From contig CAYHAA010000031.1 of the NCBI GenBank assembly GCA_964354495.1, positions 1 to 13,317 of the forward strand: a DNA stretch of 13,317 nucleotides, written 5' to 3'. The first letter of the stretch is position 1. Every line of letters begins with the position of its first letter. The position numbers were made by a program, and so were the translations under genes. The notes below the pieces were generated by a model. It searched no databases. It saw nothing but the letters and a program-made list of their open reading frames with translations, and was not told the origin of the DNA. Positions 2,296 through 13,317 of this stretch are shown here, one piece after another. The DNA comes from an uncultured archaeon. GTDB taxonomy: Archaea; Asgardarchaeota; Thorarchaeia; Thorarchaeales; Thorarchaeaceae.

Positions 2296-3306
2296 TCATG
2301 GTATTGAAAATGCTTTCTGCAATATTCCTTTTTCGATGCCTTTTGCTTTCTTACTTTTATAGCCAATGGTTTTATTCCGAAAGTATCTCATCATTATTTC
2401 CTTATCACTAGAAACCTCGCTCTCAGAGATATATTGGAATATGCTTTCCCATGTAACCCTTAGAAACTTCCTTCGCTGATTCTCCTTGATGTGCTTCCCA
2501 AAGATGGCCTCGATATCCGCCTCTCGTTTAGACCGCACCAGATTAATGAGATAGAAATCTACTTTCTGCTGATCTGCCATCCAAGTTCCAAGAATCCAGA
2601 ATCGTAATAATTCATACAGCCCCTCATTCACAACCTTTTCAAATTCGGAGTGAAAGACTTTGAAGAACCAATTCTCTCCACCAGTCAAGTATTTCTTTTT
2701 TCTTCTTGAAATGTAGGATGGGTCTTTCTTTGGGGGGTTCTTTTTGTTTGGAGCATCTAACTTTGCCTCAATGAAGAACAGTGCACGGTCAGTATGGATT
2801 ATAATATCCGGTTCTGAACCCTGAGATCTAGTTTCACCAAACTTGTCTCTTGCTGTATTCAGTGGCGACCAACCAGCATCTTCTTTCTGACTATATGACC
2901 AATAGATTACTTCAGAGGATTTAGGTGATGTGTTGGTTATAGAGCTCAACATTCTTTCGACAAGATTATTCTTCTCCAAGAATCTAAAAACATTCCAACA
3001 AACGGCATCTTCGCAATTGTCGTGTTCCATTCGACACCTTCTTTTAAAAACCTTAATTCTCTCTAATAACTCTAAGTCTAGCTGTTCTTTCCAGAGCAGA
3101 TTATCTGATACGTTCGGGTATTGAAAGGTTGAAGGGGAGATGACAATTCTGTCTCGGGGACACCTGAAATTCTCTCTAAATTCTTGGCCCTTTGTTTCAT
3201 TTGTCATTTTTTCAACAATTTCACTGCAACCTTTAACTGGACATTCAACTTTTGTGTCGGTAATTTCGATTTTTTCCTTCAATTCCTCTGCACCGAGCAT
3301 TTTCAA
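2296..3306 (-). CDS. PD-(D/E)xK putative restriction endonuclease (PGN_0703-like), 336 aa, with N-terminal Cys cluster
   Basis: SEPDIIIHTDRALFFIEAKL catalytic motif; upstream EDAVCWNVF motif resembles the PGN_0703 family; CPVKGC...CPRD possible Zn site; visibly more AT-rich than its neighbours. Start is TTG 3306 or ATG 3300. Confidence 0.7.
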   Translation of the reverse strand: MKMLGAEELKEKIEITDTKVECPVKGCSEIVEKMTNETKGQEFRENFRCPRDRIVISPSTFQYPNVSDNLLWKEQLDLELLERIKVFKRRCRMEHDNCEDAVCWNVFRFLEKNNLVERMLSSITNTSPKSSEVIYWSYSQKEDAGWSPLNTARDKFGETRSQGSEPDIIIHTDRALFFIEAKLDAPNKKNPPKKDPSYISRRKKKYLTGGENWFFKVFHSEFEKVVNEGLYELLRFWILGTWMADQQKVDFYLINLVRSKREADIEAIFGKHIKENQRRKFLRVTWESIFQYISESEVSSDKEIMMRYFRNKTIGYKSKKAKGIEKGILQKAFSIP

Positions 3307-3367: not shown

Positions 3368-3412
3368 CGTTTGGCGAATATACTATCTGACTAAAAACTG
3401 TTGAAAAAGAAA

Positions 3413-3490
3413 AGAGTGGCTCAACAGCGAGCAGCAATAGACTGGTTTCAGAGAGGATAAACTCTGCGTTTCTTGGGTCGAAAACTCACT
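3413..3490. repeat. Dispersed repeat copy R3 (most diverged; right boundary approximate)
   Basis: AGAGTGGCTCAACAGCGAGCAGCAA matches R4 at 23/25; a distal GCGTT...GTCGAA block is retained; A-rich tract (TTGAAAAAGAAA) on the left as in R2 and R4. Confidence 0.75.
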
Positions 3491-4409: not shown

Positions 4410-5699
4410 TTAGACCTTTCGCAGAATAACTATGTGCTCATTGTGCATTGTATCAGCCTTGAACCCTTCGACATTCTCTGGCGCATTCTGCCAAGGCATC
4501 CTCTTGGTTGGGATATTCCGAGGGATTGTGCACTCATGGTCGAAACCTAGAACTGTGCCTAGCTCTGCTGTAATCTTGTCCGTTGGAATTCGCACCCGAG
4601 CCATCAGACGGTTGCCAATCACAATGCACGCATGTCCGTTTCTCTTCAACTTCTGATACATTGTTTCAATAGATTGATTGTAGTCAAAGAAGAAATTGAA
4701 AAACGCCTTCGCCCGTTTTGGGCTGTTCTTGCGTACTCTCTCATAGGTCTCATTCAGAGTCTTGCTTTCAAGAAGAGTCTCATCAAATTTCTTAGAATTA
4801 CTGCCACCAAGCCCTCGCCTGTCTACCGATTGCACCTGTTCATAGTCAAGTCCAATCCAATGCGCAGGATATCGTGAGAATTGCCCATATGCAACAGTAG
4901 TACTGTGATCACCGTATGGGGGAGATGTGACAATAAGGTCAATAGAACTGTCATCTATTGGGGCTTCTCTGTTGTCAGCATATATCACTCTCGACATACT
5001 ATAGTCTTCCGGCAGCGCCTTCACAAAGGGTGCCATCAGAGGGATGCATCTTCTGACATTGGCTCGGAAGACTTCATAGACATCAGGAGTGAACGACTTC
5101 TGCTCATCCTCCTTCATTCGAACAATCTTGAACTCTGCCTTCTTCAAGTTGGATGTCTCTCGTGCTGTGTGCGCTAGGCAGAGTCTAAAGAAGTCCCTGA
5201 CAGGTTCATCCTCAACTGACTCGATTGCTTTCTTGATGACTGCTAGGTCAGCCTGAACATATTCCTTGAACCAGAGATTTGCGTTATGCATCGCTGGAAT
5301 TTCGAGGGTACCATGTAACTGCTTTCTGACTGATGCTATCTTGTTACTAAGCCTCTCGCTTGCTCGACGAAGAACATCGTTATCAATTGGGGTCGTCTTG
5401 ACCTTTGAAAGGAATACTGCGAAAGGATTGAGATCAGTACCGACTGATGTTCTACCCGTGAGCATTGACTCAACGAGTATTGAACCAGAACCACAGAATG
5501 GGTCCCAAACCAAGTCATCCTTTTCTGAATAGCGCTCAATGAGCTTCCTCGCAACCTGAGGAATCATTCTGGCTGGGTATGGATGGAGACCGTGAGTCAT
5601 GTACTTCGTGTCTGCCCCTGCAAACGTCCAGTCCTCTACTGGTTCTTCCCTATTGTCAGGGTCGAAGTCAGGCAATCTACTCTGTTCCATCATTACCAT
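4410..5699 (-). CDS. DNA methyltransferase, probably N4-cytosine, alpha-class motif order (M.MvaI-like), 429 aa
   Basis: THGLHPYPARMIPQV, motif I DPFCGSG precedes motif IV TSPPY; convergent with the REase (26-nt gap). The target sequence cannot be read from this. Confidence 0.9.
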   Translation of the reverse strand: MVMMEQSRLPDFDPDNREEPVEDWTFAGADTKYMTHGLHPYPARMIPQVARKLIERYSEKDDLVWDPFCGSGSILVESMLTGRTSVGTDLNPFAVFLSKVKTTPIDNDVLRRASERLSNKIASVRKQLHGTLEIPAMHNANLWFKEYVQADLAVIKKAIESVEDEPVRDFFRLCLAHTARETSNLKKAEFKIVRMKEDEQKSFTPDVYEVFRANVRRCIPLMAPFVKALPEDYSMSRVIYADNREAPIDDSSIDLIVTSPPYGDHSTTVAYGQFSRYPAHWIGLDYEQVQSVDRRGLGGSNSKKFDETLLESKTLNETYERVRKNSPKRAKAFFNFFFDYNQSIETMYQKLKRNGHACIVIGNRLMARVRIPTDKITAELGTVLGFDHECTIPRNIPTKRMPWQNAPENVEGFKADTMHNEHIVILRKV

Positions 5700-5773: not shown

Positions 5774-6300
5774 AGAAACGTAGGAGGTGATCCCCGATCT
5801 GTTGGTAGGAAGAGAAGATGCCCTGCTTGTGCCCGTGCAGGGACGTCCGACCTGCTAAGTAACAGTCGAAACCTGGAACCCCTAGTCCGACCGCAGTTGG
5901 TGAGTGAAACTTCTCCACCTTCAACTTCCATGTTCAGCACTCCTCATGACTCCTGTCACCAGCAACCAGCAGGACCTCTCCAGCTGGGCGTGCATGAGTT
6001 TCGCTGTGCCTCATTGGAGCATGACTCCTCTTCACAGACTGAGCATCTGTCCGCTGCGCTGTATTATCATGGTCACCAGAACCCACGATGGCAGACGGCG
6101 TTTCCATGGTCTTTTCCATGGCTTGGTCGGTACTACTCGCAGACTCCTCAAGAGAGGTCTGGTCATAGCAGTCAGCCACGGTGCTCCCTACAAGCGAAGC
6201 TGGCAACTTCTTGGGAACTGAGGACATCCCTTTAGAACGAGCCCTCCGGGTCTTCGGGGAGGCCTTCCGTATTGGCGGAAGCCAAGTCCCTAGTCCTTCC
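5774..6300 (-). ncRNA. Putative TnpB omegaRNA (scaffold overlapping the 3' coding tail and trailer; candidate guide ~5793-5774); boundaries uncertain
   Basis: Position 3' of tnpB (established for TnpB omegaRNAs); hairpins such as CCCTGC-N10-GCAGGG near 5821-5842 and CTTCCG-N6-CGGAAG near 6265-6280; a ...GGGGATCAC end resembling IS605-type right ends. Inferred, not demonstrated. Confidence 0.45.
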
Positions 6301-7856: not shown

Positions 7857-10800
7857 GTGTCATCCACGGAGCCAGCGGAGATCATAGTAAATGCACAGAT
7901 TCTTGGTCTTAGAGCTTTAGTTGATTTGCTGAGAGAACGAACAACCAAGGACACCCGATACTTACATACACTAGGACAGCAGCGTCTGCTATCAGCGCTA
8001 GAAGAGTGGCAACAGAGCATCGAGCACGGAAGCCCCAGGTTCAATGCGGTTGCAGAAGAAGAAAAACATCTTCGAGATTTCGAGCTTGAGAACATCTGGG
8101 AAACAACAAGTAGCTATGGTAACACTGAAACAAAACGTGTCAGAAGCGAGAGAGATGGAGTAGTAGGGCCTCTCAATAGACTCATCAACATCTTCGGAGG
8201 CGAGTTGAAAAATCACTTTCTTCTCCTGTATCCACTTGAAGCACCTGCTAGGATTGGCAGACAAAGGAGCAAGACAGTCTGGGGATATCAAAGTGAAGAA
8301 CTGGGTGATGTCCCTGTCGCTCATGGAGTAGACCTGCCTGAGCTTGATCTGGCGGATATGGTCCGATCTTTCGGTCGGGAACTGTGCCGGAAGTCGTTTA
8401 TCTTCGGGGCTCCTACAAATGCCTTTGATGCATACTGCTTTCTTCTCATTCGCCATCTTTCGTCATATGTAGACTATGTCTATACCAATGGCCGGTGCGG
8501 CAGTGCTCAGTTCCTGCGTTCGAAAACAAAGGCAGACAAGAAAGTAAAGGAGGACCCCTGTGCTGCTGAGGTCCTACGAGAGATTGTCGATGAACTAGGA
8601 AGTCTGTATGGTAGAGGGCCTACTCCTCTTTCATCACCATCAAGAATCCAAGAGAAGAGAGGGAAGCGTACAACAAAGAAGTTCTTCAAAGATCAGATTG
8701 AGAAGCTTCATAGACTAAGTAAAAAGAGACCGCAAGAGAAGAAGGAACTGCTGACATGGGCCAAGTTTCTCGAGACACTCACAGCCAGTAAGAAGCCAAA
8801 ACTACGAGATAGCGATGCTCAACACCTCTACGAGATTGTCCGGAATATTTCCAGATATGAAGGCGACAAATATCACAGATTTCTGACTGATGGATTGCCG
8901 CAGGTCTACAAAGCCGAATCAGTGATTTTACAGGGAGACCAATTCCTTCAACGGGGAGAAGACATCCTTATTGTCGGAGAATCCAAGATTCGGACCGATG
9001 AAGGATCTGGTCGAATAGACCTTGCAGTATACATAAGGACCGAGATACCTAACCCAAACCGACCTGGAAAAATAGCCGTCATGAGACCAATCGGAGTCTT
9101 TGAGATAAAATCACAGACCGGTTTCGACTGGGAGATTAGGACCAAGAAGACAAGAGGAAAAAAGAAGAAGACTGTTGTAAGGTTCATCGTGAGAAAGAGA
9201 GGGCTCACCGATGACGAATGGACTAATGCCCTTGCAGAGGTACCATCAAGAGGTGCAATTAGGCAGTTGAACCTCTACGCCTCTGGACTTGTCAGAGAAT
9301 ATAGAAGACTGACTGGAGATGAGACTGTCACGGATATTCTCAAAGGCGTCATTCTTGTTGACACACAGTTCGATGTAACTCTCAACAGAGAACTAGTGAT
9401 GTCTCTCCTGAAAGACGTCGCGAGTAGTCAGATTCTGAATGGCAAGGTTGGGAAAGGCAACCGATTGCTGATTCGGTCGAAGAGTTCAATGGCAAAGAGA
9501 GCGGCACTTGTGCTTCTGTCATCAGACAAAGGACAGGCTGAAGGGTTGAAGTCAGAGAGAAAAGCACTGGACTCTAAGGTCCTGTACAATCCCTTATCCA
9601 ATGTTGAAGGTGGTTCTTCACGACATATTATCTACCTGAGTGCAAGGTCTGCATCTAACTCCGGTTTCACTTCTGCATGGATTGCGCGATACTGGCACGG
9701 AATGCAGTATCTTCAACAACTGAGTGAGGACCATGGGAACAGACCAGTCGTATGGCTAGACCTTACTGGTGATTTTAGTGATAGCAACCTCGCGAAAGTT
9801 CGACTCAGAATGCAGCACCAAGACGCTGCGACAGAAACCTTCTTCGATAACATCAGGTTTATCGACCTCTCAGCCAATGTTGAGGGATTCTTATTCAGGG
9901 GAACAAATCCGCCAAATATACCAGCGCTTGGCAAGTGGCAGGACAAGATTGTGGTCGTGAGTGGGTGGGAACGGATCGAGAAGTCGACGCCGCCTCGATT
10001 GAAAAGCGCACTAGCTGAACTTGAGAGATACCTAGTCCAGGAGATGCATCGTACCGGATGCCCATCTGTCTGGTTTCTCGAGCCAAGACCCGACGAGAGG
10101 ACCTCGGAGATATATCACACAAGGTGCTTGATTCCCTTTTGGTCTTCTTCTCCTCATCAACAATATGTCACAGATGTTGTCTGGAATCTTCCGATTCGTC
10201 CGTACACATCAGTTCAGACCACTCCAATGCTTGATGACCTTCGAGTTATTGTCTACCAGACAAAAGATACTATCAAGACTGAGGCGATTGAGTTTCCACT
10301 CCTGAGGGACTGGTCTTCAAGGTTCTGGAGCAAGCGTAGCAAGAGAAAGACTTCGAAGGTGCGCAGCAAAGAGAGCAAGGGGAGAGTTGCGCTCACTCCG
10401 CAAGACGTGCTAGGCAGTGCTCAGCTCTCGAAAGACCTTATCTTTGATTCCATAGACCTCATTCCCTGGCTTCGAGACCTCTGGCATCAAGACTTTGCGA
10501 GGACACCAAATGACATCCGTCAGGATGTCCGATTCGATACTACAACCCTGTATGGTAATCCATCACCACGGTCAGGTGTCATGTCGCGAATGATGTATCG
10601 TGCCAAGATCAAAGGTACACGAGGAAAAAGGGGCTATATGACCTCTCAGCAACTGATTCCTAAGGAATCAATCACTCATCCAAGACACTACAGAAGATAT
10701 CGCCGCATCCAGAGAAATACTCTGAATACACAGAGCTACAGCGCACCAGATGAGAGACTTCTCGAGTTCAGACAATTCAGGGAGCAGACTGCTCAAAATG

Positions 10801-12749
10801 TGGAGGTCAGGCGTCTGAGGCAGACCCTGACTCTTCTATCGAAATGGAAGGAACCATGGACATCAGAATCAGCGTGGCAAGAGTTTCTCAAACAGCTGAA
10901 GCAGGTGGTTCCAAAAGAAGGGGTTCTTGTTCAGATTGGTGACATCAACGAGATCTCAGAATTGCTGAGGAACGATGACATCTCATCCAGTTTCTGGAGC
11001 TCTCTGCTATGGACTCGAGAGGGAAGACTTGGAAGTCATCTACGGTTGTGCGAGCAAGACCATCTGAGGGATCTTCTTGAGACTAATCCCCACGTGACCA
11101 CCTCCTTTGGCAACTATCTTTTCCTCCTCCTGCTTGCAGTCTCCAGAAAATACCCCGAACTGACTATTGAACAGATGCAACATCTCTGGGAGCCCGTGAA
11201 GGCATGGCATCTTCGTCAGGTCGGATTCTACCTGAGAAAGACGCAGGGGGAGCGCATTGAACCGAAGTTCGATGTCAGAGCTGTCTGGTCAAATCTATGC
11301 AAGAGAGCCACAACATTGATCAAGATGTCATTGCCGGTCCAGTCAGCTGTTCGATATGGACAACTGCTGATTGCCCCATATGGCGATGATTATGACTACT
11401 GGGTATTCATAGAGGACAGGTTCGACAAGAGCCGGTTTCAATCGGGACTTATCATCGGTCAGAATCCCTTTGCATCATCGACATTCATGAGATGGACAGA
11501 GATGGACAATCATGAGATTGCACTCCATGCGAAGTCTGTTGTAGCTGAAGAAGTCTACGACCTACTTGTGAGCAACGTCAGTGGAATCGAGTGTGTCTGG
11601 CTCTTAGCTGAGGGAGAATGGAATCTTCAGGGCGAGCTGGTCATAATTCCTCGCAAGAGGTCAGCAATAACCAGTATCAGAGGCATGCAAATCAAGCCGC
11701 TGGTAGCTGACCGAATTCCTGAAGTGCCGTTTGGTGTGAGAATGCCTCCTAGAATCAAACAACGAGTCAGAGAGGATCTCTCTCAGATTGCTCGTCTGCG
11801 TCAGAGCATCCTGAGTGTTCAGTGTGCTCTTGGGATCGACTCCGGTATGTACGCAGTCCGCTTTGAGGAGGGGCGAGAACAGATTGACATGAGAGTTGTG
11901 TATAGGACTTCGGATCTCTTACACATCCTCCGCATGCCTCTTGTGGAGGGCATTCCGTTACAGAGTTCACAAGATTCAGATGTGTATCTGACATGGAATC
12001 CGTACGAGGACATCGACTATGGCGAACTCCAGCTCTTTCGACCGTATGTGGAGAGGAAGACCCCATATGTGCATGTTCGGGTGCCACTTCCAATGACAAG
12101 TAGAGAACTTCTTGAACGACCTCCTGCAGAAGTGGAGATTATCATCTTTCATGATGAGAGCGAGTGCCCCATCGTTGATGGTAACGCTTCTGCTCATGGG
12201 TCCTGTTGGAGAGTGAAGGCTGAGGGCGAGCAGGAGAGTCCCCGCTTTGATGCGTTGACCGACCATGCCCTCTCAGACCATGATATCTCCAGTCTGATTG
12301 TTTCAGGGGAGGTCTTTCTTGAGGAGGGCAGATACAAGCTCAACATCACCTTTGACAGCAGTCCAAGTGCAAGAGAGGGCATTGTCTTCAGAGAGAGTAG
12401 ATTGATTGCACGAGCGCTTGGCTTGAAGTCAGTCACACCGGGTGTCTTTCTTGAGCTTGACACGGAGCAGCTGAAGTATGTACTCACCAACTATGGCGAT
12501 GGTATTGCAATGGGCATCTACTCATCTCTCACTGAAGAGAGGATCAGCTCGTTCAATCTCATCCCCCAGGGAAGATGGCAAATTGATGAGGTCATGGAGG
12601 GATTCATCGATGAAACGGAGGAGTTCATCGAGTCGTATTTCGGTAAGGGAGAGAGACCTGAGAAACGCATTATCGACTACGATGAGATACTTGAAGAAAC
12701 ACAAGACCTATTGAAGAGAATAAAGAAAGGACTACCTCCACTTAGATAG
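7857..12749 (+). CDS. Large uncharacterised protein, 1630 aa, with a PD-(D/E)xK nuclease domain and a possible degenerate P-loop/RecA-like domain
   Basis: Uninterrupted 4.9-kb ORF; GESKI...GRIDLAVY...VFEIKS...QLNLY matches E...D...ExK...QxxxY. IIYLSARSASNSGFTS / VVWLDLTG / IVVVSGWE follow the spacing of Walker A, the next strand and Walker B but lack GKT and DE. Confidence 0.75.
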   Translation: MSSTEPAEIIVNAQILGLRALVDLLRERTTKDTRYLHTLGQQRLLSALEEWQQSIEHGSPRFNAVAEEEKHLRDFELENIWETTSSYGNTETKRVRSERDGVVGPLNRLINIFGGELKNHFLLLYPLEAPARIGRQRSKTVWGYQSEELGDVPVAHGVDLPELDLADMVRSFGRELCRKSFIFGAPTNAFDAYCFLLIRHLSSYVDYVYTNGRCGSAQFLRSKTKADKKVKEDPCAAEVLREIVDELGSLYGRGPTPLSSPSRIQEKRGKRTTKKFFKDQIEKLHRLSKKRPQEKKELLTWAKFLETLTASKKPKLRDSDAQHLYEIVRNISRYEGDKYHRFLTDGLPQVYKAESVILQGDQFLQRGEDILIVGESKIRTDEGSGRIDLAVYIRTEIPNPNRPGKIAVMRPIGVFEIKSQTGFDWEIRTKKTRGKKKKTVVRFIVRKRGLTDDEWTNALAEVPSRGAIRQLNLYASGLVREYRRLTGDETVTDILKGVILVDTQFDVTLNRELVMSLLKDVASSQILNGKVGKGNRLLIRSKSSMAKRAALVLLSSDKGQAEGLKSERKALDSKVLYNPLSNVEGGSSRHIIYLSARSASNSGFTSAWIARYWHGMQYLQQLSEDHGNRPVVWLDLTGDFSDSNLAKVRLRMQHQDAATETFFDNIRFIDLSANVEGFLFRGTNPPNIPALGKWQDKIVVVSGWERIEKSTPPRLKSALAELERYLVQEMHRTGCPSVWFLEPRPDERTSEIYHTRCLIPFWSSSPHQQYVTDVVWNLPIRPYTSVQTTPMLDDLRVIVYQTKDTIKTEAIEFPLLRDWSSRFWSKRSKRKTSKVRSKESKGRVALTPQDVLGSAQLSKDLIFDSIDLIPWLRDLWHQDFARTPNDIRQDVRFDTTTLYGNPSPRSGVMSRMMYRAKIKGTRGKRGYMTSQQLIPKESITHPRHYRRYRRIQRNTLNTQSYSAPDERLLEFRQFREQTAQNVEVRRLRQTLTLLSKWKEPWTSESAWQEFLKQLKQVVPKEGVLVQIGDINEISELLRNDDISSSFWSSLLWTREGRLGSHLRLCEQDHLRDLLETNPHVTTSFGNYLFLLLLAVSRKYPELTIEQMQHLWEPVKAWHLRQVGFYLRKTQGERIEPKFDVRAVWSNLCKRATTLIKMSLPVQSAVRYGQLLIAPYGDDYDYWVFIEDRFDKSRFQSGLIIGQNPFASSTFMRWTEMDNHEIALHAKSVVAEEVYDLLVSNVSGIECVWLLAEGEWNLQGELVIIPRKRSAITSIRGMQIKPLVADRIPEVPFGVRMPPRIKQRVREDLSQIARLRQSILSVQCALGIDSGMYAVRFEEGREQIDMRVVYRTSDLLHILRMPLVEGIPLQSSQDSDVYLTWNPYEDIDYGELQLFRPYVERKTPYVHVRVPLPMTSRELLERPPAEVEIIIFHDESECPIVDGNASAHGSCWRVKAEGEQESPRFDALTDHALSDHDISSLIVSGEVFLEEGRYKLNITFDSSPSAREGIVFRESRLIARALGLKSVTPGVFLELDTEQLKYVLTNYGDGIAMGIYSSLTEERISSFNLIPQGRWQIDEVMEGFIDETEEFIESYFGKGERPEKRIIDYDEILEETQDLLKRIKKGLPPLR

Positions 12750-12773
12750 CAGACAGCATTTCTATTGATTAGA

Positions 12774-12792
12774 CAATGAATGAAAAATGAAA
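12774..12792 (-). terminator. Putative oligo-T terminator after R4 (analogous tracts at ~2101-2110 and ~3401-3412)
   Basis: Minus strand TTTCATTTTTCATTCATTG directly after the repeat core; T-rich tracts are the known archaeal intrinsic terminator type. Confidence 0.45.
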
Positions 12793-12886
12793 AGGGTGGC
12801 TCAACAGCGAACAGCAAGAGCAAGTTCTCCACTTTGGCATCGGGCAACCTGACGATTGCACCGCGTTCCCCGTCGAAGGCCCGTAC
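12793..12886. repeat. Dispersed repeat copy R4, in the 16S rRNA 3' trailer
   Basis: 94-nt homolog of 1-94, ending 64 nt beyond the 16S 3' end; followed on the minus strand by a T-rich tract. Confidence 0.9.
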
Positions 12887-12889
12887 CTC

Positions 12890-12945
12890 TCTTGCATTCC
12901 CGAAGGACTGCAAGACCAAGCTGCTTCTACCTCTATGAGATAGAA
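12890..12945 (-). other. Two hairpins in the 16S 3' trailer
   Basis: UUCUAUCUC-AUA-GAGGUAGAA (12945-12925) and UCUUGCAGUCC-UUCG-GGAAUGCAAGA (12915-12890, C(UUCG)G tetraloop, one G/A mismatch). Confidence 0.6.
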
Positions 12946-12959
12946 AACATAGGAGGTGA

Positions 12960-12990
12960 ATGATGGAAGACGAGATGACTCTCGACTTCT
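12960..12990 (-). other. 16S micro-intron I4, 31 nt, after A1531 (E. coli numbering), just 5' of the anti-SD core
   Basis: Central helix GAUG/CAUC, bulges GA^A and AU^U, intron stem GAAG-U-CGAGA / UCUCG-U-CUUC; predicted cuts give GGAUCACCUCCU exactly. The outer exon helix is minimal. Confidence 0.88.
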
Positions 12991-13022
12991 TCCATCCGCA
13001 GCTTCCGCTACGGATACCTTGT

Positions 13023-13052
13023 ATTTCGCCGCGCCACGAAGTGTAACGCAGT
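13023..13052 (-). other. 16S micro-intron I3, 30 nt, after A1499
   Basis: Central helix GUCG/CGAA (3 pairs plus G.A), bulges UA^A and AU^A, intron stem CUGCGU/GCGCGG; removal gives GUCGUAACAAGG. The boundary can slide by 2 nt; this register is the best BHB fit. Confidence 0.8.
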
Positions 13053-13155
13053 TACGACTTCTCCCCACTTGCCGTCCCAAGATTCGTGGTCGCCCAGTGG
13101 ACGACACCTCACCCAAGAACAGCTCGCGTGGAGCGACGGGCGGTGTGTGCAAGAA

Positions 13156-13185
13156 TTCCCCGGAGGCGCGAAAATCGCACCCCCA
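13156..13185 (-). other. 16S micro-intron I2, 30 nt, after ~C1386
   Basis: Central helix CCCU/GGGG, bulges GC^U and AA^U, 10-bp intron stem GGGGGUGCGA/UCGCGCCUCC; removal gives GUCCCUGCUUCUUGCAC (canonical length). Confidence 0.85.
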
Positions 13186-13232
13186 GCAGGGACGTATTCT
13201 CCGCGCGATAGTGACACGCGGATACTAGGGAT

Positions 13233-13262
13233 ATCCTGATGCGCATCGAAGTGGTGCGCAAA
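13233..13262 (-). other. 16S micro-intron I1, 30 nt, after A1339
   Basis: Central helix CCUG/CAGG, bulges GA^U and AU^A, intron stem UGCGCA/UGCGCA behind a U.U mismatch; removal gives CUGGAAUCCCUAG. Confidence 0.88.
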
Positions 13263-13317
13263 TCCAGGTTCACGCGGGTGAGTTCCAACCCGCGATCCCG
13301 ACTACGACTGGGTTTCG

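Follow-up and report, generated by a model that had tools for sequence, protein, structure and literature searches.

Hairpin-only introns of the bulge-helix-bulge (BHB) type, shorter than 50 nt, are known in the 16S rRNA genes of Thermoproteales, Desulfurococcales and Aigarchaeota, and their published catalogue holds 13 loci: 374, 548, 722, 781, 803, 901, 908, 919, 978, 1093, 1205, 1213 and 1391 (Jay and Inskeep 2015, PMC4496867). In tRNA genes, non-canonical and multiple introns are cut by a splicing endonuclease, EndA, of the broad-specificity (alpha-beta)2 type. The Asgard EndA has been reported to be of this type, with an L1 loop, and such enzymes accept the relaxed HBh'/BHL forms of the BHB motif as substrates (PMC5829648). 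Intron-rich tRNA genes were described in the Asgard Atabeyarchaeia and Freyarchaeia (PMC11291895; bioRxiv 10.64898/2026.10.13.758758) with no mention of rRNA, and archaeal intron gain is still open for the Asgard tRNA genes (bioRxiv 10.64898/2026.10.13.758758). Pre-mRNA can also carry BHB introns, as does that of cbf5 in Crenarchaeota (PMC2738675).

We analysed a window of 13,317 nt, which is an entire contig (G000:C31) of a Thorarchaeia metagenome-assembled genome (MAG) of 3.3 Mb in 51 contigs. At one end of this window, the 3' part of a 16S rRNA gene is interrupted by four inserts of 30 or 31 nt. They are very probably ORF-less BHB mini-introns that would be cut by EndA and rejoined by RtcB; from the sequence and from its relatives, we infer their cleavage, the ligation of the exons and their absence from mature ribosomes.

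Like the introns of Jay and Inskeep, these inserts are ORF-less and hairpin-only, remain below 50 nt while keeping the BHB core (here 30-31 nt with a 9-10-bp hairpin), occupy highly conserved 16S regions and primer sites, occur in some relatives and not in others, and are found alongside long introns at site 908 (here inserts of 740-900 nt, in the genomes G014, G064 and G085). They differ by their host, an Asgard lineage and not TACK thermophiles, by their uniform size of 29-33 nt across the class, by their number of up to five per gene, by their clustering in the 3' domain and by one terminal exon of 9 nt. The four positions in the window (1339, 1386, 1499 and 1531) are absent from the 13 catalogued loci, and only 908, outside the window, is common to both sets. 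This comparison had been suggested by a sequence-only reading of the window, which knew of no report of such a density, size or site. For the four sites this holds in the literature searched (few subscription journals), where neither they nor rRNA introns in Thorarchaeota nor rRNA mini-introns in Asgard archaea were found; the minimal size had already been published (PMC4496867). The novelty lies in the lineage and the sites, in a density of four inserts in 310 nt, in their uniform size, in the 9-nt terminal exon and in the discordant intron alleles. ORF-less rRNA BHB mini-introns would be extended from thermophilic TACK archaea to the Asgard archaea, and the published catalogue would gain six 16S sites, including one at 3 nt from the anti-Shine-Dalgarno (anti-SD) sequence.

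The 16S rRNA gene and its four inserts

The 16S gene occupies 12951-13317 on the minus strand, corresponds to E. coli positions of about 1285-1540 and is truncated at the contig end (13317), which also cuts the match to the Rfam model of the archaeal SSU rRNA (RF01959; 12982-13317, minus strand, 85 bits). Insert boundaries were placed by gap-tolerant pairwise alignment with an intron-free 16S of the same genus (G005, L005:1501-3002), and the E. coli numbering was taken from the rrsA locus (L059). Exon pieces were defined by alignment to same-genus 16S, and the trailer by a blastn search of window positions 12701-13060 against the genome and by alignment to contig C30. The features are, in the direction of transcription:

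13263-13317, minus strand: 16S exon piece
13233-13262, minus strand: putative mini-intron 1, 30 nt, after E. coli A1339
13186-13232, minus strand: 16S exon piece
13156-13185, minus strand: putative mini-intron 2, 30 nt, after E. coli 1386, in the 3' strand of h28
13053-13155, minus strand: 16S exon piece
13023-13052, minus strand: putative mini-intron 3, 30 nt, after E. coli A1499, at the h44/h45 junction
12991-13022, minus strand: 16S exon piece
12960-12990, minus strand: putative mini-intron 4, 31 nt, after E. coli A1531, 3 nt before the anti-SD CCUCC
12951-12959, minus strand: 16S exon piece, the 9-nt terminal exon left by mini-intron 4
12765-12950, minus strand: 16S trailer

Against the G005 16S, all four are clean insertions of 30, 30, 30 and 31 nt after E. 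coli 1339, 1386, 1499 and 1531, and deleting them restores conserved 16S sequence at each of the four sites. The coordinates proposed from the sequence alone proved exact, and the proposed placement at the P-site, h28, the decoding centre and the anti-SD was confirmed by the numbering. Boundaries are unique at sites 1339 and 1531 and are fixed at site 1386 by the allele of the related genome G012; at site 1499 the alignment allows them to shift within 3 nt, and 13023-13052 is the placement selected by the BHB register. Introns of rRNA generally cluster at conserved functional sites, and the location of the inserts at such hotspots is thus expected and not odd.

All four inserts are built in the same order. 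Mini-intron 1 consists of T, a 9-bp hairpin (7/9 paired, loop ACUUC), CAGG, which pairs with exon CCUG, and AU. Mini-intron 2 consists of U, a fully paired hairpin (9/9, loop AUUUU), GGGG, which pairs with exon CCCU, and AA; its fold has a z-score of -3.2. Mini-intron 3 begins with A, followed by a 9-bp hairpin (9/9, loop ACUUC), CGAA and AU, and its CGAA forms three of the four pairs with exon GUCG, where most relatives have all four. In mini-intron 4, A precedes a 10-bp hairpin (9/10, loop GUCA), and CAUC, which pairs with exon GAUG, precedes the final AU.

The assembly itself calls for some caution. The gene is split over contigs: its first 508 nt form the start of contig C15 (G000:C15:1-508), positions of about 509-1256 are missing from the assembly, and the estimated contamination of the MAG is 3.8%. 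The gene middle being unassembled, an intact full-length 16S is assumed. These facts would fit a pseudogene, a mis-binned contig or an assembly artefact, an explanation to which we nevertheless give next to no probability. The intron-bearing gene is the sole 16S found in the assembly, and the second, intron-free copy that would have spoken against the sequence-only reading was sought there and not found: only truncated 3'-end copies exist, and every one that includes h45 also has intron 4. A single 16S match is also the rule in several relatives with few contigs. Moreover, about 25 other species, assembled independently, have inserts at the same sites. The exons are conserved, and their sister in the exon tree is a same-genus genome with 99% support. 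Intron 4 is further reproduced, without differences, by an 83-nt DNA contig from a public run (X1) that spans 12941-13022, though this run may be the source sample. The sequence-only reading had suggested that many more inserts may lie in the remainder of the gene. The count over the 16S and 23S genes gives four in the 16S 3' part and none in the first 508 nt of the 16S or in the genome's own 23S, and the stretch of about 509-1256 is the unassembled one.

Shared template, folding and splicing enzymes

The inserts follow a common template of 1 nt, a 9-10-bp hairpin with a loop of 4-5 nt (often AYUUC), 4 nt pairing with exon positions -6 to -3, and 2 nt. In an alignment of 14 intron copies (A2), the 13-pair structure is paired in 96% of the cells, and sliding the partner by 1-3 columns lowers this to 33-48%. 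Each of the 13 pairs has changed on both sides, and none of 500 shuffles scores as high as the alignment itself. The central 4-bp helix between exon and intron is paired in 98% of the cells of these copies. Among 51 small inserts of the class (25-35 nt, from 33 Thorarchaeia 16S loci), it has all four pairs in 41 and three in 8, and 47 of the 51 meet the template, compared with 0.26% of random genomic 30-mers under a relaxed template. The four-nucleotide partners of exon and intron differ from site to site (CCUG/CAGG, CCCU/GGGG, GUCG/CGAU and GAUG/CAUC), and at site 1531 of G067 an altered exon, GCUG, is matched by intron CAGC, a case of co-variation. The structure of the inserts is far beyond chance.

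Cuts placed after the second nucleotide of the bulge, following the BHB rule, coincide with the boundaries derived from comparison at all four sites. The claim that this geometry regenerates canonical rRNA is thus borne out, the predicted cuts being those given by the intron-free homologue. Minimum-energy folds contain the central helix, a 3-nt 5' bulge and the inner hairpin at three of the four sites; that of intron 4 favours a 9-bp helix in a slipped register, in which the 5' bulge is hidden, and we count this as a weakness. No outer exon helix closing the 3' bulge appears in the folds or by inspection. A strict hBHBh' motif, with two 3-nt bulges each closed by a helix, is ruled out by this 3' site, and the motif is a relaxed HBh'/BHL form, as had been proposed from the weakness of the outer helices. 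The naming follows the nomenclature of Marck and Grosjean 2003.

With no outer helix, cleavage would rely on a broad-specificity EndA, an activity that can be predicted for this host. The genome encodes two EndA paralogs, at L021:1216-1779 and L022:1168-1803. The alpha paralog can be aligned over its full length to catalytic chains of crenarchaeal heterotetramers (Aeropyrum pernix EndA, 3p1z_B, E 1e-42), keeps the catalytic Tyr, His and Lys and shows no gap through the region taken as the crenarchaeal-specific loop (CSL-like). The second paralog lacks the His and resembles structural (beta) subunits. Together they show an EndA of the two-subunit, predicted broad-specificity type, which settles the subunit type that the sequence-only reading had proposed to check. 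RtcB is also encoded (588 bits).

The following course of events can be proposed. In the pre-16S rRNA, exon nucleotides -6 to -3 would pair with the four intron nucleotides that precede the last two, forming the 4-bp central helix. The 5' splice site would lie after the second nucleotide of the 3-nt bulge, between the central helix and the 9-10-bp hairpin of the intron, and the 3' splice site two nucleotides past the central helix, in an unpaired stretch without outer helix. Both would be cut by the heterotetramer-type EndA, with its catalytic alpha and structural beta subunits; RtcB would ligate the exons and probably also circularise the intron of about 30 nt. Splicing would restore the conserved sequences of the P-site (1338-1340), h28, the h44/h45 junction and the segment before the anti-SD. 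Splicing so near the mature 3' end would constrain the order of pre-16S processing in Asgard archaea.

The template of 1 nt, hairpin, 4 nt and 2 nt is also present in the genome's own tRNA-Asn, tRNA-Leu, tRNA-Thr and tRNA-Arg genes, and a copy interrupts rpoA':

G000:C3:34293-34513, plus strand: tRNA-Asn gene with five inserts of 23-32 nt
G000:C15:12493-12522, plus strand; G000:C21:29277-29306, minus strand; G000:C36:1210-1239, minus strand: 30-nt inserts in the T-loops of three tRNA genes (Leu, Thr, Arg)
G000:C3, about 191999-192028, minus strand: 30-nt insert in rpoA'

The tRNA-Asn gene gives a canonical 77-nt tRNA only once its inserts are removed, and no other tRNA-Asn gene was detected in the genome. 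The three genes interrupted in the T-loop are detected by ARAGORN only after removal of the insert. On the unspliced genome, this program finds no tRNA for Asn, Ile, Phe, Thr, Trp, Tyr or Val, so that many tRNA genes are probably heavily interrupted. The rpoA' insert (exon AUAG, intron CUAU, 8/9-bp hairpin, loop AUUUC) contains two in-frame stops, and its excision restores the conserved GYPIDSGIMDP; judged by its reading frame, it is a predicted BHB intron in an essential mRNA. With non-canonical tRNA introns, the 16S inserts share the relaxed HBh' motif and the type of enzyme, the difference being that the host RNA is here an rRNA, while the cited Asgard studies treat other classes. With the cbf5 introns, they share a splicing machinery that would act beyond tRNA, here through the copy in rpoA', an intron outside the window, in another gene and another lineage. 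The presence of the template in tRNA genes and rpoA', where its removal would be obligatory, is the strongest indirect argument for 16S splicing.

The inserts could also be excised, by EndA or another RNase, and the exons left unjoined, giving a fragmented mature 16S. DNA alone cannot separate excision without ligation from excision with it, and the inserts resemble the bacterial intervening sequences, which are removed by RNase III without ligation, in being short hairpins of rRNA genes, patchy among strains. Those sequences, absent from mature rRNA, are found at the tips of helices, do not depend on pairing between exon and intron, and leave the rRNA in fragments. Here, with four cuts in 310 nt, the P-site, the decoding centre and the anti-SD tail would be broken into pieces of 47, 103, 32 and 9 nt; RtcB is present, and the copies of the template in tRNA and rpoA' need ligation to give a product. 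We regard unligated exons as quite unlikely.

It is highly improbable that the inserts are lineage-specific expansion segments that the mature rRNA retains. Their stable hairpins and constant size would fit this reading, and unusual expansion segments are known in Asgard rRNAs (PMC7594248). However, expansion segments occupy peripheral tips and are conserved within genera, whereas the inserts lie in the conserved core, within universally conserved single-stranded or helix-28 sequence, and their presence varies between genomes with 98-99.7% identical exons. An expansion segment would have no reason to keep 4 nt complementary to the upstream exon, and the genome's own 23S is free of such inserts. 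Inserts retained at 1339/1340, in h28, at the h44/h45 junction or before the anti-SD should moreover be incompatible with ribosome function.

Transcript data were also searched. Contigs of two wetland metatranscriptomes match the conserved exon pieces only, and not the variable h44 of this organism, at 13053-13155; they run from exon to exon and have foreign flanks (e.g. another trailer after CCUCCU), which assigns them to other organisms. A third RNA run gave no contig on this stretch, and each of the runs searched shares at most 40% of its words.

As a genome finder, a covariance model built on the 14 intron copies (R1) was discarded. In the own genome it returned its training sequences and one weak match, C18:52570-52606 (E 0.07), which was dropped as lying in no open frame on its strand. 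At the tRNA-Asn locus it recognised one of the five introns, weakly, the model being dominated by the letters of the exon-specific helix. Two scans of the genome with strict motifs had 29 matches against 15 in shuffles and 10 against 5-7; six of these 10 are real (two 16S-type, three tRNA and one rpoA'). This small enrichment gives no sign of hundreds of copies.

Distribution and turnover in Thorarchaeia

A survey of the class, in which 87 genomes were searched, gave 33 16S loci. Inserts of 29-33 nt recur at eight 16S sites (696, 908, 1339, 1345, 1375, 1386, 1499 and 1531), and G071 and G086 reach the maximum of five in one gene; four are present in G085, together with a 740-nt insert at 908. 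Genomes of the same genus carry different subsets: 1339 and 1499 in G033, 1386 and 1499 in G012, 1499 and 1531 in G015, and none in G005 and G017. G014 combines the 1339 insert with a 900-nt insert at 908.

Taken site by site, the 1339 insert is present in G014, G033, G054 and G085 and missing from G005, G017, G012 and G015. That of site 1386 occurs in G012, G063, G071, G086 and G093 and is missing from G005, G017, G033, G014 and G015. The 1499 insert, missing from G005 and G017, is shared by 16 other Thorarchaeia 16S genes, and the 1531 insert, missing from G005, G017, G033 and G012, by G015 and eight genomes of other genera. Beyond the class, site 1499 was scanned for an insert of 27-35 nt between fixed flanks, which we take to be near-universal in 16S, in one genome per species over 185,579 species. 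All matches came from 16 MAGs, 11 titled Thorarchaeota and five titled only archaea.

In a tree of the exons only, the presence of the introns is patchy. The exons of G093 and G097 are 99.7% identical, and the former has the 1386 intron only, the latter the 1499 intron only. The alleles themselves do not follow the exons, their identities being discordant with those of the exons. The gene of the window and its sister G012 have 98.0% identical exons, and their introns share only 17/30 nt at site 1499 and 20/30 nt at site 1386. Conversely, the site-1386 intron of G012 is 29/30 identical to that of G071, with exons 93.4% identical, and the site-1499 intron of the window is 26/30 identical to that of G071. 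This discordance points to lateral exchange or to a long-lived polymorphism. With near-identical exons interrupted at different sites, and alleles common across genera, the Thorarchaeia 16S would provide a clean test case for intron gain.

The inserts may also affect how these organisms are detected. The site-1499 intron presumably splits the target of the universal primer 1492R, and the site-908 intron that of 907R/906F; poor amplification or products of unusual size would therefore be expected for about half of the Thorarchaeia 16S genes of this survey. In searches with covariance models, interrupted 16S genes are fragmented or missed, and the gene of this genome is unreported in some such searches.

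Longer inserts were also observed. Those of 740-900 nt at 16S site 908 are found at three loci (L009 in G014, L052 in G064 and L056 in G085), and their initial bases resemble the 30-nt inserts of the same site; the site-908 mini-introns may be deletion remnants of long inserts. A 783-nt insert interrupts the 23S of G009 (L032). At 16S site 1517, in the h45 loop region, G041 (L047) has an insert of 89 nt that opens with a similar hairpin, whose loop is AUUUC, and may represent tandem or nested mini-introns.

Repeats beside the 16S 3' end

The segment of the 16S gene from h45 through the trailer is repeated in direct orientation, with 80-98% identity, in the window and on two other contigs:

Window, 1-94, 2103-2143 and 3402-3440: three short copies of the 16S 3'-end/trailer repeat
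Window, 12765-13026: copy at the 16S gene
G000:C30 (L023), 6-188, 1087-1174, 2044-2200, 2993-3067, 5289-5409, 6119-6258, 8577-8815 and 9708-9879: eight copies
G000:C17, 63927-68938: four copies

Three of the eight C30 copies start at h45 and carry a variant of intron 4, with compensatory changes, and the anti-SD. The trailer repeats separate single genes or small groups of genes, which in the window include an S9 peptidase, a REase-ARP nuclease, restriction-modification genes and a TnpB-like ORF. Their arrangement resembles a gene-cassette array with the 16S 3' end as its anchor, and the array may be a vehicle for intron 4.

Such an array raises the question of whether insert 4 is mainly a recombination or attachment site and not an intron. 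The three truncated copies on C30, in which h45, insert 4, the anti-SD and the trailer follow each other in direct orientation, would suit this role, as would the shorter trailer copies that separate genes in the window and on C17. Yet insert 4 shares the template of the other sites, including the exon-complementary CAUC and the GCUG/CAGC pair of G067; it occurs in the full-length 16S of several genera, and the repeats that lack h45 lack the hairpin as well. Insert 4 is therefore very unlikely to serve mainly as an attachment site, and a dual role as intron and recombination site is possible.

Beyond the intron reading itself, the four inserts could belong to one mobile family of Thorarchaeia mini-introns of about 30 nt, established in 16S (at least eight sites), in tRNA genes and in at least one mRNA (rpoA'), and moving laterally between lineages. 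The spread at site 1531 may use the truncated 16S 3'-end copies, and the clustering of the introns could keep the pre-30S inactive until splicing. We put this forward as a tentative scenario, more doubtful than probable; its lateral component is based on intron alleles that are near-identical across genera and different between sister genomes.

On the other side of the trailer, the window encodes a 1630-aa ORF (7857-12749, plus strand) with no Pfam match, which converges on the 16S trailer.
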